From a virus (lineage: Duplodnaviria; Heunggongvirae; Uroviricota; Caudoviricetes): 64,000 nucleotides of DNA. Below are positions 40,056 through 60,022 of this stretch, in pieces; positions within the stretch are counted from its first letter, which is position 1, and every line of letters begins with the position of its first letter. The DNA is taken from positions 17,261 to 81,260 of IMG/VR virus record IMGVR_UViG_2932604667_000002; one strand, written 5' to 3'. The translations under genes were made by a program, and so were the position numbers. Under the pieces are notes generated by a model. The model was not told the origin of the DNA. It did not search any database and saw only the letters and a list, made by a program, of their open reading frames with translations.

Positions 40056-40059
40056 TTGG

Positions 40060-40347: not shown

Positions 40348-40367
40348 GCGAGCCTCCTGGTGAAGTG

Positions 40368-40428
40368 GGTGTTGGGTCGCTCTCCCAACACCTCTGACTG
40401 TACCGGTATTTAACTCGCCTGGCAACGC
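40368..40428 (-). promoter_or_regulatory. promoter/leader-hairpin cassette (perfect 9-bp stem)
   Basis: GGTGTTGGG-TCGCTCT-CCCAACACC; core GTACCGGTATTTAA; TGGCAAC. Confidence 0.65.
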
Positions 40429-40439
40429 GCTTGCGAGGC

Positions 40440-40660
40440 TGTTTCCGCAGGTCGCCTCAAACCTGTAGGGGTTCCTGTCGGGTCACAGGTAGAAGCCCTG
40501 GTAGGTGGTTCGAATGGACTTCCCGTCGTGGCTGCAGAAGGTGATCCGGTAGTCGATCCGGCCGTCGATCCCCTCGGGGACCCATAGGGAGTCCAGTCGC
40601 GGATCCGGAGGCGTTCCTGTCGCCGGACCTGTAGGAGGACCGTCCTGTAGGACGAAAGGG
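40440..40660. repeat. CCTGTAGG / GTTCCTGTCG repeat cluster upstream of parA
   Basis: 4 copies of CCTGTAGG (one inverted as CACAGGTAG), 2 of GGTTCCTGTCG; at strand-switch point. Confidence 0.5.
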
Positions 40661-40702
40661 CTGACGGTCGTCCAGTGGGCGGGAAGTCAGAGCGGGAGCC
40701 CG

Positions 40703-40720
40703 TGTCCGCCACCACGCGAG
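40703..40720 (+). promoter_or_regulatory. promoter core in + orientation at strand switch (candidate par-operon promoter)
   Basis: CTTAAATACCGGTCGCGAC on + strand. Confidence 0.35.
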
Positions 40721-40899
40721 GACTTAAATACCGGTCGCGACACGCCGACCCCGGAGCGGGCACCCGAGACGTGATCCTGGTAGGAAAGTGCCGCAATACC
40801 AAGAACATCAGGAGTCACGTCAACAGGAAGCTGATCCCTCCTCTCCGCGACGCGACCCCCTGACCATCCCCTCCCCCTGTCACACCGCGAGGAGACGAA

Positions 40900-41916
40900 G
40901 TGCGCACCACCCCAGCCAACGGGTTGACGACGCAGCAAATCCTGCAGATGATCCGGCCGCGACTCAGGCGAGTCATCATCGTCCTGAACAACAAGGGCGG
41001 TGCGGGAAAGACGACCACCGTCGCGAATTTTGCCTGCACGGTGGCAGCAGCGCTGAAGAAGAGCGGCTCGAAGAAACGAATCCTGGCTATGGACCTTGAC
41101 CCGCAGGGCAACCTGGGGCTCGACCTCGGCTACCAGGGAAGCGAGGGTGACGACAAGGGGGCGTCGATCCTCCAGGTCATCGACGGCGTCGGGAATCTGA
41201 ACGTGATCCGGGACGTACGGCCCAACCTCGACGTGATCCCTGGTGGCCGGTTGCTCAAGCCCATCGCCATTCGGATGTATGCGGCCGCGCAGGCCGACCC
41301 GCGTCGTGAGGTACGGCTGGCGCTCGCGCAGGCCATCGCTGAGATCGCCGGCGACTACGAGTGGATCATCATCGACTGCCCGCCCAACGTCGCGGAGCTT
41401 CAGGACCTGGCCGCGATCATCGGCCGCTACGTCCTGATCCCGGTCACCTTCGACGAGGGTTCGATTCAGGGCATGCAGGGTGTCGGCGAGGTCTTCGATA
41501 AGGCGGCCGACCTCAACGACGAGCTCATTCCGCTGGCGGCCCTGCTGTTCGGCTTCGACCGGCAGAACAACTTCCGGAAAATTCGGGACGAAAGCGGAGA
41601 AGTCGTCGGGGTCAGGGAGATCGGACTCCTGGCCAGCACCCGCGCCGAGGTTCAGTCGCTGCTCGCCGACCTCGAAATTCCAGTCCTGGAGACGGTGGTG
41701 ACGCGCGCGGTCAACGTCGCCAAGCACTGCCGCAAGCGCGGGCTGAGCTATGCCGAGCTCGCTGACGCCACGGCGTCGGAGAACTGGCGCGAGGTGGCCA
41801 AGCAGAGCGGCATCGCGAACATCTCCGCGGACTCCGCCGAGGTGTCGGCCTATGAGATGGAGCAGGTCGCGGCAGAGGTGATCCGGCTCGTCATGAAGCA
41901 GGAGGCAGCGGCATGA
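40900..41916 (+). CDS. parA: ParA/Soj-family partition ATPase (GTG start)
   Basis: deviant Walker A NNKGGAGKTT; GAGGAGACGAA SD. Confidence 0.85.
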   Translation: MRTTPANGLTTQQILQMIRPRLRRVIIVLNNKGGAGKTTTVANFACTVAAALKKSGSKKRILAMDLDPQGNLGLDLGYQGSEGDDKGASILQVIDGVGNLNVIRDVRPNLDVIPGGRLLKPIAIRMYAAAQADPRREVRLALAQAIAEIAGDYEWIIIDCPPNVAELQDLAAIIGRYVLIPVTFDEGSIQGMQGVGEVFDKAADLNDELIPLAALLFGFDRQNNFRKIRDESGEVVGVREIGLLASTRAEVQSLLADLEIPVLETVVTRAVNVAKHCRKRGLSYAELADATASENWREVAKQSGIANISADSAEVSAYEMEQVAAEVIRLVMKQEAAA

Positions 41917-42749
41917 CGAACCTTCTCGGGCACGAGGCACCGAAGCCGAATCTGGGCGGGTTGGGGCGTCGGCGTCGTACGGGTGCGCTGGACAACCTCG
42001 TCGGGGACACCACCACCGAGACACCGGAGGCACCCGCAGAGGTTCCCGCCGCCACCGTGGATGCGCCCGCTGTGCCTGTAGAGCCGCCCGCGCCTGCCAC
42101 TCTGGAGGGCCAGGAGGAGCCGCCGACGGAGTCGGAGGCATCCCCGGCCGATCAGGCCCCTACAGCGCCCCTGGAGCCCGCTGAGGCCCCTGTAGCCGTT
42201 GAGAGCCAGGAGGAGCCGGAGGAGCAGGAGACGGCCGCGCAGGCGGCCCCTGAAGCGCCTCAGGACGCGGAGCAGCCGCCCACGTCGAAGAAGCCGGAGC
42301 GGGAGAAGCCGAAGAAGGCGGCCACCGCGCGCAAGCCCGCCCCCCGGCAGGCCAGGCCCGCGCCGGTCGCGGCCGCGCTGCCCACCAAGGGTCGGCAGAT
42401 CAACGTCTACATCACGCCCGAGGCGTACGCCCTGGCCGAGCGTGACGGCCGCCTGTACGCCGAGATCGCGATGGATGCCATCGAATGGGCGCTGGATGAG
42501 GGGATCCTGGGCCACCTTGTCGAGGAGCGGACCAGCCGCACGCGGCCGGCGGGAGGACGCTTCCCGGGGCGCCGACTGGCGCGGTCCCGGCCAGAGGAGG
42601 GCACGTCGCGGGTGCCGTGGCCGACACAGTTCAGCCCGGACCAGCGCGCCGTGCTGGAGGAGATCAAAACCGAGGTCGGTGTCCGGCACCTGTCGGCGCT
42701 CATCGGCGCCGCGGTCGAGGGATACCTCACTGCCGAGGACGACGAGTGA
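41913..42749 (+). CDS. ParA partner / putative centromere-binding protein with long acidic Pro-rich linker
   Basis: ATGA overlap with parA; N-terminal Arg cluster; C-terminal INVYITPEAYALAE possible RHH-like domain; not a classical ParB. Confidence 0.4.
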   Translation: MTNLLGHEAPKPNLGGLGRRRRTGALDNLVGDTTTETPEAPAEVPAATVDAPAVPVEPPAPATLEGQEEPPTESEASPADQAPTAPLEPAEAPVAVESQEEPEEQETAAQAAPEAPQDAEQPPTSKKPEREKPKKAATARKPAPRQARPAPVAAALPTKGRQINVYITPEAYALAERDGRLYAEIAMDAIEWALDEGILGHLVEERTSRTRPAGGRFPGRRLARSRPEEGTSRVPWPTQFSPDQRAVLEEIKTEVGVRHLSALIGAAVEGYLTAEDDE

Positions 42750-42832
42750 TCCAACTGGGCGGCTTTACAGCGTAATTGAAACATGCGATCGAGTCAGCGA
42801 AGGGGCGCCCCGATGGGGCGCCCCTTCGCTGT

Positions 42833-43609
42833 TCACGCCTCGATGCTCACTATGTGTCCCGGGCCGCCGGCGATGATGCTGTGGCGGACCTCGACGCAGC
42901 GGCCTTCCCCGGTGTAGCTGCGCGCGACGATCTCCGTCACCGGGGTCGCCGGCAGGAGCTGCAACCGCTCGGACTCGGCAGGCCGGGGCATCCGGGAGCT
43001 GATTTCCAGGTCCTGGTGGACGCAGGCGTTCCCGGCATCGGCCAACACCGGGTAGGCGTCCACGTGGGTGACCGACGAGCTCCGGAGCACGGTGCCGTCC
43101 ACGACATCCTCGGGGTAGTAGGCGCGTGTCCACTCGACCGGCGCCCCGTCCGAGCGGCTGCGCAGACACTCGCGGACGAGGATGTGCCCGTCTCCCACGC
43201 CGAGCAGGTTGCCGACGGTGTCGCTCCGGATCGGGGTGTCACCCGGGGGGAGTCCGACGCTGACGTCCTCTGGCCAGGTCGCCCCTGAGTCGGCCATGGC
43301 GGCGATCCATGGATCAGCCAGCGGCACGGCGGGGCGTTTGCGGCCACGCCGGATCAGGCGCCAGGTCATCGCGGCGTAGCGCCGCACCCAGGACCCGACG
43401 CGCGGTTCGGATGCGATGAGCCCTTCGCCAGCCAGTTGGGCGTAGGCCCGGCCGACGGTGATGCGGGTTGTGCCGCGGTCTGCGGCCATCTGCACCTCGC
43501 TGGGCAACGGGTCTCCTGGCGCGAGCTCACCACTGGCGATGGCCGCGCGGAGCTCGGCGGCCAGGGCGCGGTAGGACACGCCGCCTGTGCGCTCAGCGCT
43601 CACGAACAC
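42833..43609 (-). CDS. GntR/HutC-family transcriptional regulator (KorA-like)
   Basis: GntR HTH plus UTRA-type C-domain; GTG with AAGGAGG SD; divergent from transfer operon. Confidence 0.8.
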   Translation of the reverse strand: MFVSAERTGGVSYRALAAELRAAIASGELAPGDPLPSEVQMAADRGTTRITVGRAYAQLAGEGLIASEPRVGSWVRRYAAMTWRLIRRGRKRPAVPLADPWIAAMADSGATWPEDVSVGLPPGDTPIRSDTVGNLLGVGDGHILVRECLRSRSDGAPVEWTRAYYPEDVVDGTVLRSSSVTHVDAYPVLADAGNACVHQDLEISSRMPRPAESERLQLLPATPVTEIVARSYTGEGRCVEVRHSIIAGGPGHIVSIEA

Positions 43610-43648
43610 CTCCTTTGAAGATCAGCAAAAACCAAGTGTGGCAACGGC

Positions 43649-43681
43649 TTGACATTGCGGCAAGCATAGGCTGCATAATCT
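43649..43681 (+). promoter_or_regulatory. sigma70-like promoter of transfer operon
   Basis: TTGACA-17-TGCATAAT in AT-richer divergent region. Confidence 0.45.
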
Positions 43682-43682
43682 G

Positions 43683-43690
43683 GTGTACAC
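43683..43690. promoter_or_regulatory. candidate HutC/GntR operator GTGTACAC
   Basis: perfect 8-bp palindrome matching GT-N-TA-N-AC HutC consensus, between korA-like gene and tra promoter. Confidence 0.45.
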
Positions 43691-43734
43691 AAGGTATGGT
43701 AGTGAGTATGTTCGAAACCAGGAAGCACGAGACG

Positions 43735-43967
43735 TGAGCTCGGCAGCGCAGCGCCGAAAGGAGAAGGCCCAGGCCAAGAAGGCCTGGCACCAGAACCGGA
43801 TCGACGAGGCGCCCGACCGGCGAACGCGACTCATGCGGGCGACCGACCAGCTCGCCTCAGCGCTGAAGCGGCTTCCGGACCAGGAAGCCGATCGGCTCGC
43901 CGACGAGGTCATCGCCTACCTGGCCCGAAAGAGCGATTCGGCCAACAGAAGGAGACACGCTCGATGA
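43735..43967 (+). CDS. small basic protein (77 aa, GTG)
   Basis: AGGAAG SD; ATGA overlap with next gene. Confidence 0.45.
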
Positions 43968-44419
43968 CTGACGACACCTCGGTGGTCGACCCGACCACCG
44001 ACCTGCCGGGGGAGCAGCCCCCGCCGCAGGACACCCCGGAGCAGGAGGACGCCCCCCAGGCTCCTCCCGCCAAGACGACGAGTAACCCGCTGCGCCTGTG
44101 GTGGGACCTCGCCGTCGAGAACTGGCGGAACCGCGCGACCAAGGACCTCGGGTTCTGGGGCGTGCAGCCGCCGTCCCTCGGCAGCCTGGTCCGCTACTAC
44201 ACCTCCGACGTGTGGGTGCCGAAGACGGCGTTCCCGATCGTCGATGGGATCTTCCGCTGGGGCGGCCGCCTGTACGGCTTCACGTTCGGCCTGCTCGGCA
44301 CCCTGGCGGCGCGGGCTCTGGAGTGGACGACCAACCGGCCGACTCACTTCTTCGCCGCCCTGGCGGTCTTCTTGATCGTCAAGGCGAACCTCACGACCTT
44401 CTTCGGTCAGGCGGGCTAG
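43964..44419 (+). CDS. membrane protein (151 aa), Spd-like
   Basis: acidic N-terminus, C-terminal TM helices. Confidence 0.5.
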   Translation: MTDDTSVVDPTTDLPGEQPPPQDTPEQEDAPQAPPAKTTSNPLRLWWDLAVENWRNRATKDLGFWGVQPPSLGSLVRYYTSDVWVPKTAFPIVDGIFRWGGRLYGFTFGLLGTLAARALEWTTNRPTHFFAALAVFLIVKANLTTFFGQAG

Positions 44420-44421
44420 CC

Positions 44422-44568
44422 ATGAGGAAGCGCGCCCTGACCAGCATCACCGCGATCATCCTCGCCCTGGCGGCCTTCGCCACGCGGGGCCACACGATCT
44501 CCATCTTCCTCTGCGCGGCCGCGATCTTCGTGGTCGTCCACCACACCTTCTTCGGAAAGGAGGGTTAA
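44422..44568 (+). CDS. small TM protein (48 aa)
   Basis: ATG right after upstream stop; hydrophobic. Confidence 0.4.
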   Translation: MRKRALTSITAIILALAAFATRGHTISIFLCAAAIFVVVHHTFFGKEG

Positions 44569-44570
44569 CC

Positions 44571-44987
44571 ATGACGCCATTCACCGCAGGCTGCCTCGCC
44601 ATTGGGCTGGCCGCCGTCCTGATGTGGCAGGGGCAGCGGATCCGCAAGCTGCCCGCCGACAAGCGGCAGGTCATCCAGCTCATCCTGATGCTGATCGGTG
44701 GCGCCGGCCTGGTCGGCACGATCTTCACCAACTGGGTCACCCGGATGAACTTCAAGTTCGGTGACCTCAACTCGCACACTGTCCAGCTCGTCACCGCCGG
44801 AGTGCTCCTCCTGCTGCTGATCATCGACTTCTGCGACGGTCACGGGATCAAGAAGCGGAGCTACGTCTTCGCGATCCTGACCCCGGCCCTGCTCGCCGGC
44901 GGCACCGGCGCGGTGGGCAGCCAGATCGTCGAGCTGCTCAACGCCGCCAACGGCGCGTTCGGCTCCGTCGCCAGCACGGTCCTGTAA
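44571..44987 (+). CDS. integral membrane protein (138 aa)
   Basis: AAGGAGGG SD; 4 TM. Confidence 0.55.
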   Translation: MTPFTAGCLAIGLAAVLMWQGQRIRKLPADKRQVIQLILMLIGGAGLVGTIFTNWVTRMNFKFGDLNSHTVQLVTAGVLLLLLIIDFCDGHGIKKRSYVFAILTPALLAGGTGAVGSQIVELLNAANGAFGSVASTVL

Positions 44988-45000
44988 GGGGTGACTACAG

Positions 45001-46218
45001 ATGCTCCTCCTGGCACTGGCCACCGCCTGGCTCATCATGCGGACCCTGCGCGAGATGGGCTACACCTTCGACGACGTGGCCAGCATCCCCAAGCGGATCA
45101 AGGGGGAGGACGTCGACCCGGGTGAGCCCAAGCTCACCTGGGAGACGGTCAAGGAGCGGCGCCACAGCGGCCAGTGGGACTGGCCGCTGTGGCTCGGTTC
45201 CTGGCTGATCGCCGGTCCCACCCGAGCAGGACACGCCCGCTACAAGGCGCGCAAGGCGGCACGGGAGGCCAAGGCCGCCGAGGAGGCCGCTGGCGCCGAG
45301 CAGGCCCAGCCCACCTCCGAGCAGACCGAGAAGCCCCCGACCGCCGCCGACGCCCCGAAGCAGCCGGAAGACGAGACCGGAGCCGACGGCAAGCAGCGGC
45401 GCTGGTGGAAGAAGGAGACCCCCGAGGCCGACCGGCCGGCGGGGGAGTCGTCTCCTGAGCCGCCGCTCGCTGGTGTCGGCGAGTGGGAGGTGGCCCGCGA
45501 GGGCTGGACCCCTGGCCCTGACGTCCCGGCCCACAACCCTGACGACGACATCGTCGACGCCGAAATCGTGCCTCCCCGCGCGATCACTGAAGGAGAAGAC
45601 CCTATGGCCAACGACCTTGCTGCCCCGCAGACTCCGGCTCCGCCCGTACCTGGCCCGCCTCCCGGTCCGGCTCCTGCTCCGCTGCCTGGCCCGGCTCCGA
45701 CCCCGCTGCCGACGCCCGTGACCGCGGCCAGCCCGATCCAGCCGGGCCTGCCCGCGGGCACCGTCGTGTTCGGCATTTGTGATGACTCCGGCAAGGAGAT
45801 CGGGGTTGTCACCAACGACGGCCAGGTCAAGTACCACAACCCGGCCGACGAGCCCGGCGCTGGGCAGGTCCCCTCGACCACTCCCCAGGCTGCCGTGGCC
45901 GCCAGTGTGCCCGCTCAGCGCAGGGGAGGTGAGCTTGCTTTGGACTCCGTCCGCGCGATCGACGACCGCCTCGTACAGGTCCTGTCGGCCTGTGATGCAG
46001 CGGTCATGAACCTGATCGAGCAGCTCCACGGTGAGGGCATCACCGGGTCGATCTCCACCAGCTACATGGCGGTCCTGGAGGGCCTCTCCGCCACGCTCGG
46101 GCTGCGGCAGGGGGCTCGCCAGGAGCTGGAGCGGCACAGCAATCCGATCCAGGAGGCCGTCACCTCCGCGACGCCGAGCAACGTCGCGAACAACACCAGC
46201 TTCTACCAGCACCAGTAA
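45001..46218 (+). CDS. membrane-anchored proline-rich protein (405 aa), Spd-like
   Basis: N-terminal TM, PAPxP repeats. Confidence 0.5.
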   Translation: MLLLALATAWLIMRTLREMGYTFDDVASIPKRIKGEDVDPGEPKLTWETVKERRHSGQWDWPLWLGSWLIAGPTRAGHARYKARKAAREAKAAEEAAGAEQAQPTSEQTEKPPTAADAPKQPEDETGADGKQRRWWKKETPEADRPAGESSPEPPLAGVGEWEVAREGWTPGPDVPAHNPDDDIVDAEIVPPRAITEGEDPMANDLAAPQTPAPPVPGPPPGPAPAPLPGPAPTPLPTPVTAASPIQPGLPAGTVVFGICDDSGKEIGVVTNDGQVKYHNPADEPGAGQVPSTTPQAAVAASVPAQRRGGELALDSVRAIDDRLVQVLSACDAAVMNLIEQLHGEGITGSISTSYMAVLEGLSATLGLRQGARQELERHSNPIQEAVTSATPSNVANNTSFYQHQ

Positions 46219-46236
46219 CTCCGGAAGGAGGAGGTC

Positions 46237-48357
46237 ATGAGCACGAACCGCTCCACCCCCCGGCCGCCCGTGGCCTCCACGGCGCCGCAGACCGGCGCAC
46301 GTCTTGGGGCTCCAACCGCACCGCCGGCGAACCTGCCGGCGGTGCCGCCCGGCCACACCCTGGTTCCCAAGGAGCCAGCCGGGCCGACGGTCGGCGGCGA
46401 GCTCCAGCGTGCGGCCAAGAAGGTCGGCTACCGGATTCGTTACGGTGCCGCCCCTCTCATGACGATGGGCGGCCTGTGGGGCGCCACCGCCTGGGCGACC
46501 ACGCAGGCCGGTATGGGGCCGGTCACGGTCGGCGCGGGCACGGTCGCCCTGGCCGCCGCGCCGCTCATCAAGAAGAAGCTCCGCCTGGCCGTCCGCAAGG
46601 CGCTGTGCACGATGCGGCGCAAGGTCTGGGCAGGTGGCGCGCTGACTGCGGCCACCACCTGGACGATGGCGGCCGCGGAGGTCGGCGTCGGGTTCGACAC
46701 GCTGATGCCGGCGGCGCTGGTCGTCGGCGGGTCGGTGATCTCGATCCCGTTCTGGTGGAGGTACCGCAACCAGATCCCCGCGGCTCCGCTCAAGGCCGTC
46801 GAACCTCCGCCGGCGCAGCCCGCGCTGCCTGCTCCCGAGCCGCCGCGTGAGCTGCCGCCTGCGCCGCATGAGGACCAGATCGAGTGGGACGAGTTCGTCG
46901 GCTGCTCTGGCGGCGCCCTCCCCGGGACGTGCCTGCTGGACCGTGAGGAGCTGTTCGACCTGGACGGCAACCCCAACGGGTCCGCCTGGACGATCAAGCT
47001 GGTGCGGGGCAAGCAGACCACGATGTCGGCCATCGCGCAGAGCGAGAACATCCAGTCGGCCTACGACACGACGGGCGGCCTGCTGTACGTCGAGCGGCAC
47101 CCGTCGGGCAAGCAGTCGCTGGCTCGGCTGGTCAAGATGACGCGCAACCCGCTGTCGACCGAGTCGATCATCTACAAGGGTCCGCGGCTCGACCTCAAGA
47201 CCGGCATCGCGCCGATCTCGCTGTACCCCGACGGGTCCGGATACGCCTACTACCGGTTCTGGGAGCCCAAGTCTGGAAGCTGCCACACCCTGGTGTCGGG
47301 CACCACCGGCGCCGGCAAGTCCGGCGTGCTGACGTGGATCATCACGGAGGCCGCCGAGTCCGGTGTGGTCGCGACCTGGCTGCTGGACCCGCAGCACGGC
47401 ATCTCGGTGCCCGCGTGGGTCAAGCACGTCGACCGGGCCGCCCTGGAGATGGAGGAGATCAAGGCGTACCTGTACGCGGCGGCCGCCGTTCTGGAGGCGC
47501 GCGGGCGCTACCAGAAGACGCTGCGCTGGTACGACGCGGAGATCGACGAGTGGTGCGAGGGCAAGGGCTTCTTCGAGCCCACGCCGGAGTACCCGCTGCT
47601 CATGGTCGTCATCGACGAGGCCCACAAGGTCCTCCTCGACCAGGAGTGCGTGAACCTGGTGGCCTACCTCGCCAAGGAAGGCCGCAAGGTCGGCATCAAG
47701 ATCGTGCTTGCGACGCAGGTGCCGTCGGTGACCGAGCTCGGTGGCAACGTCGTCATCCGCGACCAGGTCGCCAGCGGAAACATCATCGTCCTTCGGACCG
47801 CCAACAGGTTGTCCGGACAGATGGCGTACTCCGGCTCGCTGCCGATCGACCCGGGCGCGATCCCGAAGGTGTTCGAGGGGACCACCATCCCCACCAAGGG
47901 ACTGGGGTATGTCCTGTCCGCGACCGAGCGGCCGGTGCCCTCGCGGGTGCTGTACGTGCGGGACGCGGTCAAGCGGGCCAGGGCGGTGGACGTCAAGCGG
48001 CTGGACGCGATGAGCGAGCAGGCCGCCGCGGCGATCCTCGAGCAGATGCTGGGCGCTCCGCGGGCCGCTGGTGCTGCCCCTGGCCAGCCCGTGGCGCCGG
48101 TGGTGCCGCTGCATGTGGTGCCGGTCCAGGGTGGCGACGACACCCGGGCCACTGCCAAGCACGCGGTCCTGGACTACATGCGACGGGTCGGCAGGCCCGT
48201 GCCGGCCGGTGAGTTCAACGACAACCTCGAATACAGCCCGGCGCAGATCCACAAGGCCCTGAACGCACTGAAGGACACGAAGCAGATCCGGCAGGGCGGA
48301 TGGGGTCAGCCGTACGAACTCGCCGACTCCGTGGCCGGGGTCGGCGCCGCCCAGTGA
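46237..48357 (+). CDS. traB: FtsK/SpoIIIE-family DNA translocase (TraB-like)
   Basis: TM N-domain; Walker A GTTGAGKSGV; Walker B LMVVIDEAHK. Confidence 0.8.
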   Translation: MSTNRSTPRPPVASTAPQTGARLGAPTAPPANLPAVPPGHTLVPKEPAGPTVGGELQRAAKKVGYRIRYGAAPLMTMGGLWGATAWATTQAGMGPVTVGAGTVALAAAPLIKKKLRLAVRKALCTMRRKVWAGGALTAATTWTMAAAEVGVGFDTLMPAALVVGGSVISIPFWWRYRNQIPAAPLKAVEPPPAQPALPAPEPPRELPPAPHEDQIEWDEFVGCSGGALPGTCLLDREELFDLDGNPNGSAWTIKLVRGKQTTMSAIAQSENIQSAYDTTGGLLYVERHPSGKQSLARLVKMTRNPLSTESIIYKGPRLDLKTGIAPISLYPDGSGYAYYRFWEPKSGSCHTLVSGTTGAGKSGVLTWIITEAAESGVVATWLLDPQHGISVPAWVKHVDRAALEMEEIKAYLYAAAAVLEARGRYQKTLRWYDAEIDEWCEGKGFFEPTPEYPLLMVVIDEAHKVLLDQECVNLVAYLAKEGRKVGIKIVLATQVPSVTELGGNVVIRDQVASGNIIVLRTANRLSGQMAYSGSLPIDPGAIPKVFEGTTIPTKGLGYVLSATERPVPSRVLYVRDAVKRARAVDVKRLDAMSEQAAAAILEQMLGAPRAAGAAPGQPVAPVVPLHVVPVQGGDDTRATAKHAVLDYMRRVGRPVPAGEFNDNLEYSPAQIHKALNALKDTKQIRQGGWGQPYELADSVAGVGAAQ

Positions 48358-48537
48358 TTACGGGCCGTGGTCAATCTCTCGCGAGATATCTCCACGGCCC
48401 CCACTCCCTCCACTTGGAGTCTCAGGCGGTCGTACGCGCGGGCGCGACGCGCACGCGCGCGCGAAGTTAGCACAAGAGATCGAGACATTGAGACATTCAC
48501 GACCACTACAGCGAGTAACGGAAGGACTGTGATCGAA

Positions 48538-49620
48538 ATGGCTAGGAAGCAGAGCAAAAGGACCGCGGTGATCCTGCTTGTCGGAGCAGGTATCGGCACG
48601 ATCACCTTGAACGTCTGGCACGCCGTGGAGAAGCTGACTGCCCTGCACAAGGCGGGCGAGACACTGGAGGCCAAGGACTACCTGGGCATTGCCGCGTTGG
48701 CGCTGATCGCTGGCGTTTTGCCGGTCTTCCTGGCCGGATTCATGTCGGAGCTGGCCGACTCGCACCCGAAGGGGCGAGGCAAGGCCGTGTGGCTCGTCAT
48801 GGGCATGGCGATGGCCCTGTCCATCCAGGCCCAGGCCGAGATGCTTGAGCCAATCTTCGGGGAGTTGGTGGAGGGCAAGCCACTGCTCAGCCTGCGGTGG
48901 CTCTTCCCACTCATGTGCGACATCGCCGTGATGAAGTCTCTTCAGGTGCTCCTGGCTCCCGACGACGACACGGCGGAGAACGCCGCCAGCGGGGTCACCA
49001 CCCCGGCTCTGGTGACGTACGTCAACCGCCCCGACGGCCTCACCGGGGGGACCGCTCCTGCCGCCGGGGGAGCCTCACTCACCCCTCACCCGGGCGGCTT
49101 ACCCGGCTCACCGGGGACCCTCACCGGGCAGGGATCCGCCCCTCACCGGAACCTCACCGACCCTCACCCGGTGAGCCCTTCCAGTGAGGCACCGCAGAAC
49201 CCCGCCGCCCCCTCACCGAACACCCCTCACCCGCCCCTCACTGGGGAGGGAAACCAGGGCGGCGGTGAGGCCCCGACCGGCCCCGCACCCAAGCCCCAGG
49301 CGGAAGTTCCGGCCCCCCGGCAGCCGAAGAAGCCCGCGACCAGAAAGCCCCAGAGCAAGAAGGTCCGGAGCGCCACGGAGACGGACCCCGACCGGATCGA
49401 CATCATGGCCCTGCACGGCCCTGACCTGGTCCGACAGATCAACGCCGACCTGGCCACGGGCAAGCTGGAGCGCCTCTCCGGAGCGCAGATCCGCATGCGT
49501 TACGGCCCCCTCGGCAGCGACAACGCCTCAATCGTCTTGGCCCGATACAACGAGGCGAACGAGCGCCTGGCCGCCCCCAGTGAGGACGTCACCGGCGACC
49601 TCACCGAGCGGGTCGGGTGA
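48538..49620 (+). CDS. membrane protein with Pro/His-rich repetitive C-terminal half (Spd-like)
   Basis: GGAAGGA SD; C-terminal half is encoded by the CCTCACCG repeat array. Confidence 0.45.
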   Translation: MARKQSKRTAVILLVGAGIGTITLNVWHAVEKLTALHKAGETLEAKDYLGIAALALIAGVLPVFLAGFMSELADSHPKGRGKAVWLVMGMAMALSIQAQAEMLEPIFGELVEGKPLLSLRWLFPLMCDIAVMKSLQVLLAPDDDTAENAASGVTTPALVTYVNRPDGLTGGTAPAAGGASLTPHPGGLPGSPGTLTGQGSAPHRNLTDPHPVSPSSEAPQNPAAPSPNTPHPPLTGEGNQGGGEAPTGPAPKPQAEVPAPRQPKKPATRKPQSKKVRSATETDPDRIDIMALHGPDLVRQINADLATGKLERLSGAQIRMRYGPLGSDNASIVLARYNEANERLAAPSEDVTGDLTERVG

Positions 49621-49930
49621 CCCTCACCCACCCCCTCACCGAACCTCACCGGTGACCCTCACCCGAGCCTCACCGGTGAGGTGCCCAGTGAGCCTCTACC
49701 ACCCTCACCGGTGAGGCTCGCCGGGTGCCTCACCGAGACACCGCCCCAAGACCAAACGCCCTCACCGAGCAGCATCAGCGGACCTCACCCAGCGCCTGCC
49801 GGGACCACCCCCGCGAGCCGCTCCAGTGAGCACCCTCGCCCCTCACCGAGTGACGGCCCGACGGCGGCCGCCCTCACCGCGAAACCTCACCGACTCGACA
49901 TCACCGGAGGAGACCCCAGTGACTCTCACC
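49060..49930. repeat. array of >20 direct and inverted CCTCACCG octamers (clt-like)
   Basis: CCTCACCG / CGGTGAGG repeated through 3' half of 48538 gene, intergenic region and start of next gene; directly downstream of traB. Confidence 0.55.
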
Positions 49931-50623
49931 ACCACGCCCACCCCGCTCACCGCCGCGGCGCTCGGCGCGCTCAGCGGCGACGGCAACATCCTCGTCGCCG
50001 GGCCGCCCCAGTCGGGCAAGACCTCGCTCCTGGCGGCGCTGGTCGAGTCCTACCGCCAGGAGGCGCGCGTGTACGTGCTCGGCGCCTTCAAGGGGTTCGA
50101 CACCTACCGCGCCGCGGTCGACGGCCGCCGCGTGGGCCTCGGCGGTTTCGACGACAAGAACCTCTCGCAGTGGCTCGACGACCCCACGGAGGCGCTGGGT
50201 CCCTACGACGGCATCGGCGAGGTCATCAAGAGCCGGATGCTCTACGTCCACCTCTGCCACGAGCCCATCGTCGTCGTCTGGGACAACCTCAACGTGTTCC
50301 ACCACGGTGGCGACCTCGACAAGCTGGTCGCCCTGTCGCGCCGGATCAACGTCAAGGTGATCGCCGCCATCACCACGCCGATCTCGCCGATGGCGATCTA
50401 CAACACCACGACGGCGCAGATGGCCACCCGGGTCCTCCTCGCGCCGCACCGAGAGAAGGAGCACCGGACGGCCGACCTGTTCCCCTGGTACGAGCTCACG
50501 CACCAGCCGTGCCCGCGGTCGTGGGAGATGCCGCGCACCCCGGGGACGGCGCTCATCACGCCCGACGCCACCGGCGAGGCCCCGCTCCTGTACACCCTCG
50601 CTGGCCCGAAGGGCGCCCACTGA
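49919..50623 (+). CDS. P-loop NTPase (234 aa, GTG)
   Basis: GPPQSGKTS Walker A, VVVWDNL Walker B; GGAGGAG SD. Confidence 0.5.
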   Translation: MTLTTTPTPLTAAALGALSGDGNILVAGPPQSGKTSLLAALVESYRQEARVYVLGAFKGFDTYRAAVDGRRVGLGGFDDKNLSQWLDDPTEALGPYDGIGEVIKSRMLYVHLCHEPIVVVWDNLNVFHHGGDLDKLVALSRRINVKVIAAITTPISPMAIYNTTTAQMATRVLLAPHREKEHRTADLFPWYELTHQPCPRSWEMPRTPGTALITPDATGEAPLLYTLAGPKGAH

Positions 50624-50691
50624 CCCCCGGCCAACCGTCCAGGACCGACCCCGGCGCACGCCGGAACCCCCGTAGAAGGGACAACACCCCG

Positions 50692-50922
50692 ATGTCCGAT
50701 GTCCGAGTGGCGATCGTCTTCGACCCCGACGACGGCCCCGAGCAGACCCTGTACGCCTACCTGCCCCCGAAGGACTTGGACGCGCTGGCGGCCGAGGTCG
50801 GCAAGCCGGAGAGGGCTGAGGAGGTCCTGGTGATCGACGCCGCTCTCCAGCCCAGCGGGCCGTACCTGCAGCGTGTCTTCCGCTGGGGCCGGATCAAGAG
50901 CATCAAGCGCGCCACCTCTTGA
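50692..50922 (+). CDS. hypothetical protein (76 aa)
   Basis: AAGGGA SD. Confidence 0.5.
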   Translation: MSDVRVAIVFDPDDGPEQTLYAYLPPKDLDALAAEVGKPERAEEVLVIDAALQPSGPYLQRVFRWGRIKSIKRATS

Positions 50923-50984
50923 CCCTCCAGTCGCCGGCCGCCGGGACTCACGTCCTGGCGGCCGGCCCCCACCAAGGAGAACCG

Positions 50985-51215
50985 ATGTCCAGCGAGAGCA
51001 ACAGCAACGACGTCCCCATCCACCGCCGGTCCTGGAAGTCCTACACCGAGGGCTATGACATCTACTGCGCCAGCTCGTGGGTGCAGGTCGGCAACCTCGG
51101 CCAGTGGGTCTGCGGCAACTGCCAGAAAACCACCACGGACCCGCTGTCTCCGCACCAGCCCGACACGCTCGCCGACTGCAGGGAGTGCGGCCGGACCAAC
51201 CGCATCTCCCTCTGA
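50985..51215 (+). CDS. zinc-ribbon protein (76 aa)
   Basis: CGNC...CRECG; AAGGAGA SD. Confidence 0.5.
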   Translation: MSSESNSNDVPIHRRSWKSYTEGYDIYCASSWVQVGNLGQWVCGNCQKTTTDPLSPHQPDTLADCRECGRTNRISL

Positions 51216-51236
51216 CCCGCCCCGAGGAGGAACCCC

Positions 51237-51359
51237 GTGGATGTCACCTGCCCGTGCGGCAACAGCACGCAGTGGAAGAACGTCCGCCTTGAAGACAGCA
51301 CCGCAAGCGTCACCTGCGCCGTCTGCGACACCGTCCATGTCACCGAGGTCGAGTGGTAG
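51237..51359 (+). CDS. mini zinc-ribbon protein (40 aa, GTG)
   Basis: CPCG...CAVC; GAGGAGG SD. Confidence 0.4.
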   Translation: MDVTCPCGNSTQWKNVRLEDSTASVTCAVCDTVHVTEVEW

Positions 51360-51409
51360 CAGGCGAGCCTACATAAGGCCCATCAATCCCCGAAGGAGAT
51401 CACCACCAG

Positions 51410-51690
51410 TGAGCATCGCGAACACAACCACGCCCCGCCCGTCCGTCTCCGTCCCCGCCTGCAACGTCGGCGCCCTCCGCAACGCCCTCGCCGGGCTTCC
51501 CGACGACATGCGGATCGTCCTCATGACCACCGACGCCGACGAGGGGACCAGCTACGCCGACCTGTACATGGCTGAGGTCGCCACCTACGTGGAGGAGCCG
51601 GACGACAAGGGCGCGCGGTACATCCCCGAGGTCCGCGACCTCGGGGACGAGGACGACGCCGAGACGGTGCTCTTCCTGATCCCGTGCTGA
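51410..51690 (+). CDS. hypothetical acidic protein (93 aa, GTG)
   Basis: GAAGGAGA SD. Confidence 0.45.
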
Positions 51691-51817
51691 CCACCAGTCC
51701 GACCGGCAGCCACGACTGACAGGCCAGCCATAACGCCCCACTTCCTCAACCTCCTCGGGGGTCTCACCGGACGCCGGCGAGACCCCCGATCCACGACCTG
51801 CCCACCCCGGAGGAACC

Positions 51818-52462
51818 ATGCTCACGATCGACGCCACGCCCACGCCGTACCAGATCCCGGCCACCGTGCCGCTCAACACGCTGATCGCCGACCAGTGCGG
51901 CTGCCGCGCCGGCCGCCTCCTGGCGGCCTACCTCGACGTCCTGGCCGCCCAGGGCTGCCAGGTCCAGGTCCTGACCCCGTCAGAGTCGTCCGCAATGAAG
52001 GAGCACGCCCCCAAGGGGACCTTCGTGGCCGTGGGCGACCCGAAAGAGGACCTGAAGGACCTTCTCGCCGACGTCTTCCCCGAGCGCCGCGCACACGAGC
52101 CGTCCGCGCCGCTGGTGGTGCTGTGGGAGGACGCTCACGTCTACCCGAACAAGCTGCTCCTGGCTCTCGTGGCCCGCCAAGCGGCAGCGTCCAAGGTGAG
52201 CCTGATCGTGTCCATGGCGAACATGCTCGACACGAACGTCATCGACAACGAGACACGGGACTTCTTCAGGGGACGGATCCTGTTCGAGCCGTGGAACCTC
52301 GACCGGTCCAGGCTCTGCGGAGTCGTGCCGCGTTTCTGGAACATGCCGGAGGAGGAGATCCCACACCCAGCTTCCCTGTGGTCCGGCGACGACCAGGCGG
52401 CGCTGATGGTGCAGCCGTACAACGACACCCCGCGGATGGTCACCTTCCCCCAGATCGGCTGA
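51818..52462 (+). CDS. hypothetical protein (214 aa)
   Basis: GGAGGAA SD; followed by terminator 52478-52514. Confidence 0.55.
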   Translation: MLTIDATPTPYQIPATVPLNTLIADQCGCRAGRLLAAYLDVLAAQGCQVQVLTPSESSAMKEHAPKGTFVAVGDPKEDLKDLLADVFPERRAHEPSAPLVVLWEDAHVYPNKLLLALVARQAAASKVSLIVSMANMLDTNVIDNETRDFFRGRILFEPWNLDRSRLCGVVPRFWNMPEEEIPHPASLWSGDDQAALMVQPYNDTPRMVTFPQIG

Positions 52463-53216: not shown

Positions 53217-53420
53217 GGGGCGGCGCCCGCGAGCCTGGCTCCTCAGCTTGATCACGAGGTCATGCACTGCCCGTTCAAGGGCGTAGACATCCGGGTGCCG
53301 GTCTTCGCCGACCCACTCGGGGAGCTGCAGGAAGTTCGCCATCGCGTCCTCGTTGGACTGGGCCTCAACCAGCCGCGCCACGTACAGGTATGCCGCGCGC
53401 TTGGCCTGCTGCTGGTTCAC
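53208..53420 (-). CDS. hypothetical protein (70 aa, GTG)
   Basis: AAGGAAG SD; GTGA overlap. Confidence 0.5.
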   Translation of the reverse strand: MNQQQAKRAAYLYVARLVEAQSNEDAMANFLQLPEWVGEDRHPDVYALERAVHDLVIKLRSQARGRRPAT

Positions 53421-54304
53421 CCCGCGTCTTCCTTCTGAAGGTTGGCGGGGATCCGCTCGTGCCGGGTGGCGTACGCCGGGCCGCCGGCAGCGGCGGATCC
53501 GGCGTCGAGCACGGGCGCTGTCCTGGCTCCTGCCTTCGCGAGCCGGGCGGAGGCCGACCGGGTCACGAGCGGCGCCTTGGCGAACACCACTCCGCCGGGG
53601 GCGCGCTTGAAGTACTGGCCAGGGTGCTCGAGGTCATGGATGTCGACCTTCTCGGCGTCCGCGCCGAGGACCATGGTGGCAGTCAACTGGGACCGGGTGC
53701 GGAGCAGGTAGCGCGCGGTGAACTTCTCCCCGGTTGCGCCCCACGTGCGGGGGATGGCGACGGTCCCGTAGCGGGTGGCGAAGACGAGCGACACCGCGGC
53801 CTCCTGTCCGCGGTGGACGACTGAGCCGAGGTGGGCCGCGAGCTCGGCGCGGTCGGAGTGGACGGCGAGCGCGGCGGCCTCCGGCAGGACGTAGACGATC
53901 GCGGGCCTGTCGCAGGACGGGGTGAGCTTGTCCCGGCGGGCGAGGGTGTTGAGTCGGTGCTCGATGATATTGGTCAGTGCGGCCACCTGCCGGGCGGCCT
54001 CGTCGATGGTCGTTGCCGCCCAGTCGAGGCGGGGCATCCACGGCTGGAGGTGCCAGCCGTGGTGCAGCGGGTCGGCGCCCCAGATCATGGTGTCGGCGCA
54101 CCGGTGCAGGTTGGCGAGGGCGACGTAGACCATGTTGGTCAGGCCGCCGCCGCTTTCGGCGTCCATGAACCAGTGCTGGTGTAGCAGCGGCTGCTCATCG
54201 CGGGTGCCATCGTTGCGGGTGCCCGTGAGGAGCGGCTGGGTGATGCTGTGCGGCAGGTGCTGCTCGATGTCGCCGCCGAACAGGATCGCGCCGGTCGGGT
54301 TCAC
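53417..54304 (-). CDS. hypothetical protein (295 aa)
   Basis: GTGA overlap; replication-module context. Confidence 0.5.
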   Translation of the reverse strand: MNPTGAILFGGDIEQHLPHSITQPLLTGTRNDGTRDEQPLLHQHWFMDAESGGGLTNMVYVALANLHRCADTMIWGADPLHHGWHLQPWMPRLDWAATTIDEAARQVAALTNIIEHRLNTLARRDKLTPSCDRPAIVYVLPEAAALAVHSDRAELAAHLGSVVHRGQEAAVSLVFATRYGTVAIPRTWGATGEKFTARYLLRTRSQLTATMVLGADAEKVDIHDLEHPGQYFKRAPGGVVFAKAPLVTRSASARLAKAGARTAPVLDAGSAAAGGPAYATRHERIPANLQKEDAG

Positions 54305-54974: not shown

Positions 54975-55742
54975 TCACCAGCCCGCGCGGGTCCGCCGGT
55001 CCGGGCCGGTGATTTGCACGACGGTGATCTGCTGGCTGATCCGGGAGATGATCCGCTCGTCGTACAGCCGCTCGAGTTCGGCCGGGCCGAGGTTCGTCGT
55101 GATGATCAGCCGCTTGCCCCGTCCGAGCCGGGGGGAGAACAGGTCGCAGAGCTCGCGCTGGACGAACTCGGTGGCGGCTCCGCGCTCAAGGTCGCGGTTG
55201 GCGCCCAGGTCGTCTACGAGCAGGTCCTGGACTCGCGCCGCGCCGTCGCGGACCTTCCACGCCGGTTCTGGTCCGCCGTCGGGCAGGAGCGCGTCCAGGT
55301 AGGACTTCTCCTTCCACGCCTTCACGGTGCGGCCCTGCTCGGCGAAGTGCCTGAGCAGGGCGAACGCCACGTGCGTCTTGCCGACGCCCGTGGCTCCGGA
55401 CAGCAGCAGCGTGCGGCCGTTCGGGTCCTCGGCCCACGCCCGGATCCGGGCGACGTGCTGGTGGCGCGGGTCGAGGGCATCCAGCGACGCCGTGGAGTAG
55501 TCCTCGTACGGCCAGGACGCCAGCAGCTTCTCCCAGCCCTGCGACGACGTCCGCGCCTGGAGCGCTGACACCTCGGCCCGTACCTGCTCGCGGTCCGGCT
55601 CGTCGTCGACCGCGTGCAGGTGCCCGCCACGTTCCCGGGTGATCCGGTCGCTCATCTCGCGTATCCGGGCCAGGCCCGAGGTCGTGCGCCCCTCGGCGCC
55701 CGGCTGCTCCCCGAGGACGTCACCGATGGTCATGTCACTCAC
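54975..55742 (-). CDS. DnaC/IstB-like AAA+ helicase loader (GTG)
   Basis: LLLSGATGVGKTHVAFAL Walker A, LLVDDLG Walker B; GTGA overlap with initiator gene. Confidence 0.7.
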   Translation of the reverse strand: MSDMTIGDVLGEQPGAEGRTTSGLARIREMSDRITRERGGHLHAVDDEPDREQVRAEVSALQARTSSQGWEKLLASWPYEDYSTASLDALDPRHQHVARIRAWAEDPNGRTLLLSGATGVGKTHVAFALLRHFAEQGRTVKAWKEKSYLDALLPDGGPEPAWKVRDGAARVQDLLVDDLGANRDLERGAATEFVQRELCDLFSPRLGRGKRLIITTNLGPAELERLYDERIISRISQQITVVQITGPDRRTRAGW

Positions 55743-59572: not shown

Positions 59573-60022
59573 GGGGTGGTGCTCATGGCCCGGACGCTAG
59601 ACCGGACCTGCGGTTACTGTCTGCGCTCACTCGTGTGCGCGCAGGTAGTTACCACGTTGAATCATGGTATCGCCATGACCCGGGCGGGTGGCAAGGCGTA
59701 CCCACGCAGGGAACGGACCTCTGCCTCAAGTGGACAGGGATCGAACATCTCGTAGCCGCGGGCGTAGTCAACCAGTTACCGTTCTTTGCGGAACTCGACA
59801 ACCGTCCAGGGGACTGGGGGGAGGGGGCGGCCAGCATGCTGAGCGTGAACGTCCCACTCCTGCTCACGACGCCCTTTTGGGAGATAGACCTCCGGTTGGC
59901 TGCCCATCGCGCACTCACCTCTGTCTGGGACTTCGCGGCGGACGCCTGGGACACGCTGCGAGGGCGATGCAGAGACCCTCTACGGGGGCACTTATCCCTG
60001 ACCAGCAAATGGCGGCACACCA

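Follow-up and report, generated by a model that had tools for sequence, protein, structure and literature searches.

A circular tailed-phage genome of Microtetraspora fusca with partition genes and a candidate TraB-type conjugation module

Phage-plasmids and conjugative plasmids are usually seen as alternative strategies for the spreading of DNA. The closest described system to the locus analysed here is pZL12 (phage ZL12; GQ919031), a circular Streptomyces element of 90,435 bp that combines siphophage structural genes with ParB and ParA. It is said to have been presented as a plasmid-phage by Zhong et al. in 2010 (J Bacteriol 192:3747). The conjugal transfer of pZL12 was shown experimentally and, in the account that PMC3583192 gives of it, requires the tra gene together with adjacent genes; pSLE1 is syntenic with pZL12 (PMC4487206), and in the passages of PMC7157519 that deal with such prophages pZL12 figures as a singleton and as the one temperate actinobacteriophage that is extrachromosomal without belonging to mycobacteriophage cluster A. 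The parABS prophages of cluster A, P1 and N15 are likewise temperate and maintained as plasmids, with partition replacing integration (PMC7157519, PMC12282955). In this study we analysed a stretch of 64,000 nucleotides (the window) of the IMG/VR virus record IMGVR_UViG_2932604667_000002, which is part of a circular replicon of the actinomycete Microtetraspora fusca in which partition genes and a module resembling the TraB-type transfer systems of Streptomyces plasmids lie within a tailed-phage genome. We regard it as fairly probable that the element is a phage-plasmid whose TraB-type transfer system works, i.e. that it combines the two strategies, and it probably spreads as a virus, as a plasmid and as a conjugative element. 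Such a module is lacking in the cluster A parABS prophages, P1 and N15, and the plasmid-phage PhiNon1 of Nonomuraea, although from the same bacterial family as the present host, is an integrating one (PMC5431353).

With the TraB/TraR/clt/Spd systems of the Streptomyces plasmids pSVH1, pIJ101, pJV1 and pWTY27 the module has in common a single FtsK-like ATPase, possibly membrane-anchored and predicted to end in a winged helix, a GntR-type candidate repressor, small membrane proteins and direct repeats of 7-9 bp near tra, which in those plasmids form the cis-acting transfer locus (clt); it differs from them in that the replicon is a phage genome. To our knowledge, the single-protein TraB system of actinomycetes involves neither a relaxase nor a type IV secretion system (T4SS), and searches based on a relaxase or a T4SS are therefore not expected to detect it. 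The published census of phage-plasmids sought conjugation genes only by means of CONJscan, that is via the mating-pair-formation machinery and the relaxase (PMC7969092).

Contig JBIAXI010000024.1 (151,757 bp) of assembly GCA_042896545.1, which derives from Microtetraspora fusca (Streptosporangiaceae), matches the window with 100% identity once its record is wrapped; the Streptomyces-type label that had been attached to the locus on the basis of its letters alone (hereafter the original prediction) thus does not hold for the host. The first and the last 95 bp of the contig are identical, and for two window genes that fall at its opposite ends the coordinate offsets add up to 151,662. Because of the identical ends, and because the window spans the junction between them, the replicon closes in the assembly into a circle of 151,662 bp, which answers the question of replicon topology that the original prediction had raised. 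Logan contigs spanning the junction match the window with 100% identity. The 84 kb inspected of the 152-kb replicon showed no chromosomal genes. The structural genes that had been proposed as a target for a search elsewhere on the contig are indeed there: immediately to the right of the window lie the genes of an SPP1-type Dit protein, a 1554-aa (amino acid) tape measure protein with an NlpC/P60 domain and minor tail proteins, three tail proteins sharing synteny and ~30% identity with the minor tail proteins that Streptomyces siphophages such as mu1/6, SV1 and Picard encode, and to the left of the window lie those of an amidase/peptidoglycan-binding endolysin, a single-stranded-DNA-binding protein and a head-decoration-like virion protein. 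Structural and lysis genes thus share a contig with ParA and an iteron replicon, and the element is a tailed (siphovirus-type) phage genome.

As the window has a high G+C content (69%), its genes were called by third-position GC (GC3). All genes between 1 and 40.3 kb lie on the minus strand, those between 40.9 and 52.5 kb lie on the plus strand with the exception of one divergent gene, and those between 52.6 and 62.0 kb lie again on the minus strand; ~80 small minus-strand genes make up the left flank of the plus-strand block. Within the block the called genes agree with those of the public record. At 16453-17417 (minus strand) the public annotation has a 188-aa gene (weak HTH_Tnp_1 match) and a 94-aa gene that were missed by the GC3 calling, and the closure point of the contig falls at the upstream edge of this pair. 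The original prediction had placed in the plus-strand block ParA with a coupled partner, a divergent repressor of the HutC/GntR class, small membrane and proline-rich proteins, a TraB-like FtsK/SpoIIIE translocase and a P-loop NTPase, had described the flanks as phage-like on one side and as devoted to replication and recombination on the other, and had seen no integrase in the 64 kb. These genes are present at the positions listed in Table 1, with predicted transmembrane segments in the proteins of 151, 48, 138 and 360 aa and with the 405-aa protein as the proline-rich one; the left flank consists of minus-strand phage genes, the right flank encodes an initiator with iterons, a DnaC-like loader, an exonuclease and RecT, and no integrase family was matched in the window. 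In the case of the ParA partner the coupling was borne out, whereas the protein itself is not recognisable as a ParB. The extrachromosomal or hybrid lifestyle that had been read from this arrangement is supported by the circle, by the structural genes, by the family test of the TraB-like protein and by the lack of flanking repeats, which are treated below.

The evidence for a transfer function centres on the 706-aa TraB-like protein. When compared to family profiles, as had been suggested along with the same comparison for ParA, its top match in NCBIfam, below equivalog level, is NF041214 plasmid_TraB (E 6.2e-13, residues 245-601), and the Walker A (G355TTGAGKS) and Walker B (V457VIDEA) motifs are intact and conserved in seven homologues. 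In an AlphaFold2 (AF2) model built from seven homologues the FtsK alpha/beta motor covers residues ~210-600 (pLDDT, the confidence score of the model, ~85), followed by a C-terminal unit at 636-698 (pLDDT ~80) that is composed of three helices (636-651, 657-663 and 668-680) and two strands (684-686 and 693-695), an order of elements that, as modelled, is a winged-helix topology; one homologue (P0006) carries precomputed matches to MarR_2 and FtsK_gamma. A Foldseek search with the core retrieved the conjugation coupling protein TcpA (2e-15) and the DNA-bound FtsK motor 6t8g (3e-14, TM-score 0.64). Toward the N-terminus the hydropathy windows 93-111 and 150-168 are barely at the threshold for membrane segments, and the model has long helices at 52-179 with a pLDDT below 55. 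The architecture predicted here has been reported for TraB of pSVH1 and TraA of pWTY27, the latter a protein of 688 aa with two N-terminal transmembrane segments (PMC3583192, PMC4447253).

Homologues of the 706-aa protein were found by tblastn on 137 actinomycete plasmids (35-39% identity over ~350-450 aa), of which, according to the MOB-suite typing in PLSDB, 88 are non-mobilizable and 49 mobilizable. True homologues (35-37% identity over >400-540 aa) are encoded by two large plasmids, NZ_CP109431 of Streptosporangium sp. NBC_01495 and NZ_CP108729 of Streptomyces sp. NBC_00989, both typed as non-mobilizable. These plasmids resemble the present locus in the order of the genes around the homologue and in the presence of a short-repeat array after or within the adjacent membrane-protein gene; they differ from it in having an extra full-length FtsK (alpha/beta/gamma) a few kb downstream as well as SsgA genes, and no phage structural genes are annotated in the ~19-kb stretches compared. 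The common order, namely a divergent GntR+UTRA gene, small genes, a gene of 350-460 aa, a homologue of ~680 aa and a membrane-protein gene of 360-390 aa, was found in the Streptosporangium plasmid and in four further loci of our comparison, L008 (an 88-kb metagenomic contig), L010, L019 and L021. At the nucleotide level, a megablast of the 12-kb block against the PLSDB plasmids and the INPHARED phages gave no match. An IMG/VR scan with the single 706-aa protein was equally without a match, and a broad search of genome contigs with unspecific patterns yielded, among the matches listed, only unrelated FtsK-like genes (Photobacterium, Streptococcus and Mesorhizobium).

The other genes of the operon fit the same pattern. 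GntR+UTRA homologues of the 258-aa regulator occupy the same divergent position in L008, L010, L021 and pZL12, and the gene is a candidate for a TraR/KorA-like repressor of the transfer operon. The AT-richer region between it and the operon, in which TGGTGTACACAAGG contains a palindromic TGTACA core, may comprise both the promoter and the operator. Four small proteins follow, three of them with one (151 aa), two (48 aa) and four (138 aa) transmembrane segments predicted from hydropathy (43964-44987), and L008 encodes, in the corresponding place, a homologue of the 151-aa protein (25% identity, E 9e-8). They are candidates for Spd-like proteins, although no homology to the Spd proteins of Streptomyces could be detected. 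The 405-aa gene has positional counterparts of 344 aa in L007, 464 aa in L008, 416 aa in L010, 435 aa in L019 and 370 aa in L021, to none of which its product shows detectable sequence similarity. The N-terminal transmembrane region of the 360-aa protein (orf360) is 26% identical (pairwise E 4e-5) to the 359-aa protein encoded after the TraB-like gene on the Streptosporangium plasmid, and orf360 corresponds in position to the membrane-protein gene found behind the TraB-like gene on plasmids. For the small membrane proteins, orf405 and orf360, Pfam, NCBIfam and PHROG yielded no usable matches at E values up to 1, and family searches did not demonstrate that orf360 belongs to DUF2637. Downstream of orf360, the P-loop NTPase (orf234) is resembled by an AAA_16-like gene of 220 aa downstream of the TraB-like gene in L019. 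In all, three extra P-loop or FtsK-like proteins (234, 214 and 295 aa) are encoded near the TraB-like gene.

The strongest 7-mer cluster of the 64-kb window is an array of 24 copies of CCTCACC that spans 855 bp and begins ~700 bp downstream of the TraB-like gene. With both strands counted, the array holds 24 of the 51 copies in the window, 21 of these 24 in the same orientation, and CCTCACCG is present in 33 exact copies in the 64 kb where 6.9 are expected, 18 of the 33 being inside the array, which contains in addition two perfect CCTCACCGGTGAGG palindromes. Two sub-arrays can be distinguished, one inside orf360 (49038-49270) and one that covers the last 22 nt of orf360 and the intergenic region (49599-49892). 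The nine copies of the former lie in the low-complexity, Pro/Thr/Gly-rich middle of orf360 and cover all three reading frames, which argues for selection on the DNA rather than on the peptide; the remaining fifteen occupy the end of orf360 and the 298-bp spacer ahead of orf234. Because a clt locus, as described, consists of clustered direct repeats of 7-9 bp, beside or overlapping tra, to which the C-terminal winged helix of TraB binds (PMC3583192, PMC4447253), we consider the array, by analogy, a strong candidate for the clt of the element. Compared to the clt loci of Streptomyces, with 4-9 copies in 50-200 bp, it is large (24 copies in 855 bp), and it overlaps the coding sequence of orf360.

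Arrays of this type, each with a motif specific to the element, are present near the TraB-like genes of at least eight other loci, irrespective of whether ParA is encoded nearby (Table 1). This distribution bears on the alternative that the CCTCACC array is instead a centromere for the ParA partner, a terminase pac site or a by-product of the low-complexity coding region, which we judge to be unlikely and which, touching only a single step of the mechanism, leaves the phage-plasmid reading intact. In its favour, arrays of 7-bp repeats are bound by centromere proteins of the ribbon-helix-helix type, and repeat arrays also serve as pac sites in some cases; near parAB only three short repeats and no parS were identified, and nine copies are in the Pro/Thr/Gly-rich coding stretch. 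Against it stand the fifteen copies that are intergenic or at the end of orf360, the use of all three frames by the coding copies, and the arrays that adjoin TraB-like genes without a detected ParA (L006, L007 and L010). Moreover, L007 and L008, the only two loci to share a motif, are also the only pair with similar TraB-like C-termini (57% identity, other pairs being unalignable), so that in the single informative pair the identity of the motif follows the similarity of the C-terminus. The location downstream of traB and the repeat length agree with described clt loci as well (PMC3583192, PMC4447253). Embedded 7-8-mer arrays may be a general form of clt that is undescribed for large actinomycete plasmids.

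The transfer operon is preceded by the partition genes. ParA, which matches the AAA_31 profile and the ParA-like PHROG, has a deviant Walker A motif (K32GGAGKT38) and scores 69.8 bits against NCBIfam ParA_partition, below the equivalog cutoff of 180. Its coupled partner has a disordered, acidic and Pro-rich N-terminal half and a conserved C-terminal part of ~120 aa; the single homologue found, from Planomonospora sphaerica, is 56% identical over the C-terminal part, and there is no relative on the PLSDB plasmids. We regard the partner as a putative ParB analogue, i.e. as a centromere-binding adaptor. The 552-bp control region ahead of parA is a candidate parA promoter and possibly the centromere. 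It contains three of the four exact copies of CCTGTAGG in the window (40462, 40628 and 40644), two copies of GTTCCTGTCG, a minus-strand copy of the dispersed promoter motif described below (40400-40412, promoter-like TTGCCA-17-TACAGT) and a plus-strand copy with two mismatches (40725-40737), 175 nt ahead of parA. Bordering this region is a tandem duplication (39492-39980 and 39932-40414; ~490 bp per copy, 79% identity) which yields two paralogous small membrane proteins, each with its own copy of the promoter and leader.

Taken together, the genes suggest the following scheme. In the prophage state the element would replicate as a plasmid and would be segregated by ParA and the coupled partner. 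The operon at 43.7-49.6 kb would constitute a Streptomyces-type conjugation system, in which the TraR-like GntR/HutC regulator represses the divergent promoter, and which, lacking the dispersed promoter/operator motif, would be regulated apart from the rest of the genome. Upon expression, the membrane-anchored, TraB-like FtsK-family ATPase would form a ring, recognise the CCTCACC(G) array (the candidate clt, 49.0-49.9 kb) via its C-terminal winged helix and pump the element, in double-stranded form, into the hypha next to it. Acting like Spd proteins, the small membrane proteins together with the 360- and 405-aa proteins would then spread the element through the septa of the recipient mycelium.

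Several findings weigh against this scheme. A circular assembly is equally expected from a terminally redundant or circularly permuted linear phage genome and cannot separate such a genome from a plasmid, and the Logan contigs that bridge the junction probably come from reads of the same strain and are therefore not independent biological evidence. The 706-aa protein scores 48.1 bits against NF041214, far under the equivalog cutoff of 800, and its BLASTP alignment with pZL12.71c, the Tra protein of pZL12, is colinear and non-significant (E 0.11); since the direct comparison with a 667-aa protein of a Thermobispora plasmid (see below) is likewise colinear and non-significant, the same architecture is claimed for these proteins, not homology. 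On the side of partition, no convincing parS was seen near parAB, where the short repeats amount to three copies of CCTGTAGG and two of GTTCCTGTCG; the ParA partner has no ParB, ParG or ribbon-helix-helix family match in Pfam, PHROG or NCBIfam at E values up to 1, and its AF2 model is poor (pLDDT 46), with a beta-alpha-alpha pattern at residues 161-195. The array could bind another protein than the TraB-like one. Finally, integrase and recombinase families gave no match in the window and 20 kb of its flanks (~84 of 152 kb), whereas pZL12, pSLE1 and the Thermobispora plasmid each carry recombinase genes; here an integrase could be located in the ~67 kb outside the scanned part.

Alternatively, the element might be no more than a lytic or pseudolysogenic tailed phage of large size, contained in the sequenced culture, whose ParA-like and FtsK-like proteins serve phage purposes, possibly genome positioning, host takeover or exclusion, with the element being neither a plasmid nor conjugative. 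The 129-kb Streptomyces phage Gilgamesh illustrates this: its FtsK-like gene is the sole tblastn match to the 706-aa protein in the INPHARED phage collection (26% identity, residues 253-504), and as it also encodes a ParA-like protein, the two genes alone do not prove a plasmid or conjugative lifestyle. In addition, generic FtsK-like ATPase domains are found in dozens of IMG/VR contigs, some of jumbo size (loci L046-L101), and PHROGs classifies such FtsK-like genes as morons. Nevertheless, we consider this an improbable explanation. It is plasmids (137 records) and not phages that carry full-length relatives of the 706-aa protein, the order of GntR, membrane-protein, TraB-like and membrane-protein genes together with a short-repeat array is common to bona fide plasmids, and pZL12, which has the same layout, is, in the account cited above, both a plasmid and conjugative. 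The element is, moreover, part of the genome assembly of an isolate, has no long terminal repeat at its closure (95 bp only), and has no tRNA genes in the window. An Rfam scan of the window was likewise without a match.

A further possibility is that the plus-strand block is passenger cargo, acquired by recombination from a plasmid or from an actinomycete integrative and conjugative element (AICE) and no longer functional or irrelevant to the phage. The strand switches at each end of the block, the nearest homologues of the TraB-like protein are plasmid-borne, and the tra genes are mosaic among pZL12-like elements. The operon also lacks a motif that is found before most other transcription units, namely a dispersed promoter/operator/leader element of ~80 nt, the core of which, TAAATACCGGTAC, has 27 matches in the window versus 0.06 expected. 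This element has the form TTGCCA-N7-TTAAATACCGGTAC-N3-TCAG-GGTGTTGGGAGAGCGACCCGAC (hairpin)-N9-AGGAGG-ATG, precedes ~24 leftward transcription units and the replication operon, and probably marks units under common control by a single phage repressor or sigma factor; a motif scan of the window found a form with two mismatches ahead of parA and none at the tra operon, by which parA looks wired into the phage circuit and tra appears to be under the control of its own GntR regulator. We nevertheless regard the cargo explanation as highly unlikely. All open reading frames of the block are intact and have a high GC3, the TraB-like protein has kept its Walker A and B motifs, and the 24-copy array is maintained. 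No direct or inverted repeats of at least 13 bp bracket the block, and it has no integrase and no shift in composition (GC 0.69 vs 0.70 in the flanks, GC3 0.90 vs 0.90-0.92, codon frequencies r 0.91-0.96), so that a recent insertion is unsupported. The scenario under which the original prediction would have failed, i.e. that of a separate, repeat-bounded insertion in an integrated prophage, was examined on the same grounds and rejected, as the composition matches that of the element and flanking repeats of at least 13 bp are missing. The block does not qualify as an AICE either, since the module has no integrase within it or close by and is not flanked by direct repeats of at least 13 bp. In addition, a GntR gene and a TraB-like gene recur beside tail, lysis or structural genes in L010, in pZL12 and in ~18 pZL12-like contigs, a recurrence that argues for selection.

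In pZL12 a GntR gene is divergent from an operon that ends in the genes of a 398-aa membrane protein, a 766-aa protein and the 725-aa FtsK-like Tra, and the tra operon directly adjoins the phage structural genes. Architecture and inferred mechanism of the present element match those of pZL12, and the combination is rare, having been shown experimentally, as far as the sources cited above go, only for pZL12. The two are unrelated in sequence: megablast gave no nucleotide similarity, a tblastn search with all proteins of the window retrieved from pZL12 only a DNA methyltransferase, the helix-turn-helix part of GntR and weak ParA matches, and, as no homology to the backbone proteins 73c, 67c, 66c and 63c was found, the element falls by sequence outside the pZL12-like family. 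It is also larger (152 kb vs 90 kb), encodes a 278-aa ParA partner where pZL12 has a large ParB, lacks a recombinase in the ~84 kb scanned where pZL12 has one, and is unlike pZL12 in having RecT and an exonuclease, an initiator with iterons inside the gene, a 7-deazaguanine cluster and a host from the Streptosporangiaceae. The pZL12 type of conjugative plasmid-phage is thus a known, if poorly recognised, kind, of which the present element is a sequence-unrelated and larger representative with another phage backbone and from another host family; what is new here is that the contig closes into a circle, that structural genes lie beyond the window, that a candidate clt array exists with counterparts elsewhere, and that TraB-like modules recur in actinomycete phage genomes which current mobility classifiers type as non-mobilizable.

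This recurrence takes three forms. In L010 the module abuts the genes of a peptidoglycan-binding protein, a 1242-aa protein and a PhageMin_Tail tape measure protein. A scan with a five-sequence alignment and a local panel yielded ~18 pZL12-like IMG/VR contigs of 80-97 kb (within L024-L044) that are 50-89% identical to pZL12 73c, 67c, 66c and 63c, and in which the Tra position is occupied by a homologue of the 706-aa protein (24-28% identity over 320-400 aa) and not by pZL12.71c. The Tra position of this family is thus mosaic, with a TraB-like gene of the window type replacing 71c/72c. Lastly, NZ_CP039125.1 of Thermobispora bispora ZC4 (L013, L014), which the NCBI taxonomy places in the Streptosporangiaceae, is a finished circular 'plasmid' of 145,352 bp that PLSDB types, like the Streptosporangium and Streptomyces plasmids above, as non-mobilizable. 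It carries portal, HK97 prohead protease, major capsid, tape measure and tail genes, QueD and DUF6573 genes, ParA, a tyrosine recombinase, and a GntR gene divergent from an operon with the 667-aa P-loop protein of TraB-like architecture, and is apparently an unrecognised phage-plasmid. Together with the present element, these cases show that TraB-like modules sit repeatedly in tailed-phage genomes of more than one actinomycete family.

Table 1. Features of the window and repeat arrays of comparison loci (positions refer to the window unless preceded by a locus number)
Feature	Position	Strand	Evidence and remarks
95 bp common to both contig ends, circular closure point	17365..17459		Window reads straight across the junction
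Phage-type 7-deazaguanine DNA-modification cluster	18544-30954	-	Content given in text
Divergent control region between leftward phage arm and parA, 552 bp	40348..40899		One minus-strand copy of dispersed promoter/operator motif
ParA-type partition ATPase, 338 aa	40900..41916	+	Pfam AAA_31 1.9e-27, CbiA 1e-10; PHROG ParA-like 3.7e-38
ParA partner, 278 aa, translationally coupled	41913..42749	+	ATG overlaps parA stop by 4 bp
GntR/HutC-family regulator, 258 aa	42833..43609	-	Pfam GntR 3.1e-14, UTRA 3.6e-9
AT-richer divergent promoter region (putative), GntR gene / tra operon	43610..43733		TTGACA...CATAAT, then the palindrome-containing stretch given in text
Four small proteins, 77, 151, 48 and 138 aa	43734..44987	+	GC3 frame analysis, hydropathy, public record
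Proline-rich protein, 405 aa, hydrophobic N-terminus (orf405)	45001..46218	+	12% Pro
TraB-like double-stranded-DNA translocase, 706 aa	46237..48357	+	Pfam FtsK_SpoIIIE 26.8 bits (cutoff 24)
Membrane protein, 360 aa (orf360)	48538..49620	+	Three N-terminal transmembrane segments; middle of low complexity; C-terminal part conserved
Array of 24 CCTCACC copies (candidate clt)	49038..49892	+	Strongest 7-mer cluster
Small P-loop NTPase, 234 aa (orf234)	49919..50623	+	AAA_16 4.5e-6; Walker A GPPQSGKT
Four small genes, 76, 76, 40 and 93 aa	50692..51690	+	Two Cys-rich; last DUF6225-like (2.8e-4, below cutoff)
Paralogue of orf234, 214 aa, without Walker A; last gene of plus-strand block	51818..52462	+	BLASTP vs orf234, 24% identity, E 1e-6
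HNH endonuclease gene	52577-53194	-	PHROG 740, 1e-14
Second, degenerate FtsK/SpoIIIE-like protein, 295 aa, in replication operon	53417..54304	-	PHROG 31069, 1.5e-17
DnaC-like loader	54975-55742	-	PHROG DnaC-like loader 1.1e-24; IstB_IS21 and Bac_DnaA matches in replication module
Initiator, 558 aa	55739-57415	-	Replication module 54975..57415
Six iterons of ~27 nt, TGATGGGTCTGCTTGGCTGGACCCTTC	56771-56974		Each an inverted repeat GGGTC...GACCC; inside initiator coding sequence
Recombination module, PD-(D/E)XK (Cas4-like) exonuclease and RecT	58229..62011	-	PHROG exonuclease 7e-14; Pfam RecT 1.4e-16
Dispersed promoter element, examples of 27 sites	4524, 6415, 11818, 13457, 20683, 23415, 26733, 33481	-
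Dispersed promoter element, further examples of the 27 sites	36129, 36581, 39526, 39966, 40400, 54887	-
Dispersed promoter element, further examples of the 27 sites	40725, 62097	+
Array GTTCCGC, 10 of 19 copies (as GCGGAAC)	L007 11931-12091		Just after membrane-protein gene
Array GTTCCGC, 13 of 25 copies (6-mer CGGAAC)	L008 13601-14100		Just after membrane-protein gene
Array CGCAACC, 21 of 24 copies of the locus	L010 2780-3300		Inside 3' half of 536-aa gene
Array CGTTGTC, 14 of 14 copies	L006 2801-3400		Inside 3' half of annotated DUF2637 gene
Array CGGACCG, 20 of 25 copies	L021 7351-7950
Array AGCGCTC, 13 of 17 copies	L022 6651-7250
Array CGGCTCA, 11-13 copies, in pZL12-like loci	L041, L042 ~5050-5700		Where related pZL12-like loci have a 73c-like membrane-protein gene

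The modification cluster in the left part of the window encodes two DpdA paralogues (20708-21535 and 29387-30289), FolE, QueE, QueD and QueC, together with proteins resembling Mom and PAPS reductase, a C5 DNA methyltransferase and a ParB-like nuclease; the occurrence of two DpdAs plus Mom suggests more than one base modification. On the other side of the plus-strand block, the iteron-containing part of the initiator gene encodes a low-complexity acidic linker, an arrangement like that of lambda O, and the second FtsK/SpoIIIE-like protein of the replication operon has no Pfam match and no canonical Walker A motif. The HNH gene sits at the place where the replication operon meets the plus-strand block, is directly preceded by a strong intrinsic terminator (53194-53162; a 13-bp stem followed by a T-run), and possibly encodes a free-standing homing endonuclease.

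A more far-reaching idea, which we advance tentatively and ourselves hold to be doubtful, is that tailed phages of mycelial actinomycetes commonly carry a TraB/clt/Spd 'movement' system, by which the prophage-plasmid is pumped, after infection and without lysis, through septa into neighbouring hyphae. If true, such elements would make up a widespread class that spreads in three ways (as virion, by conjugation and as plasmid) and is missed by the current phage-plasmid and mobility classifiers; their cis site would be a large, element-specific array of 7-8-mers, often within the coding sequence of a membrane-protein gene, and they might also mobilise host chromosomal DNA that bears clt-like sequences. 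The candidate clt array and its counterparts represent testable pairs of DNA-protein recognition, and, vectors for Streptosporangiaceae being scarce, the replicon, partition and transfer parts of the element could serve as tools. If the module works, the element would move both by infection and by cell contact, with consequences for how genes flow, for the ecology of phages and for the engineering of strains in antibiotic-producing actinomycetes.

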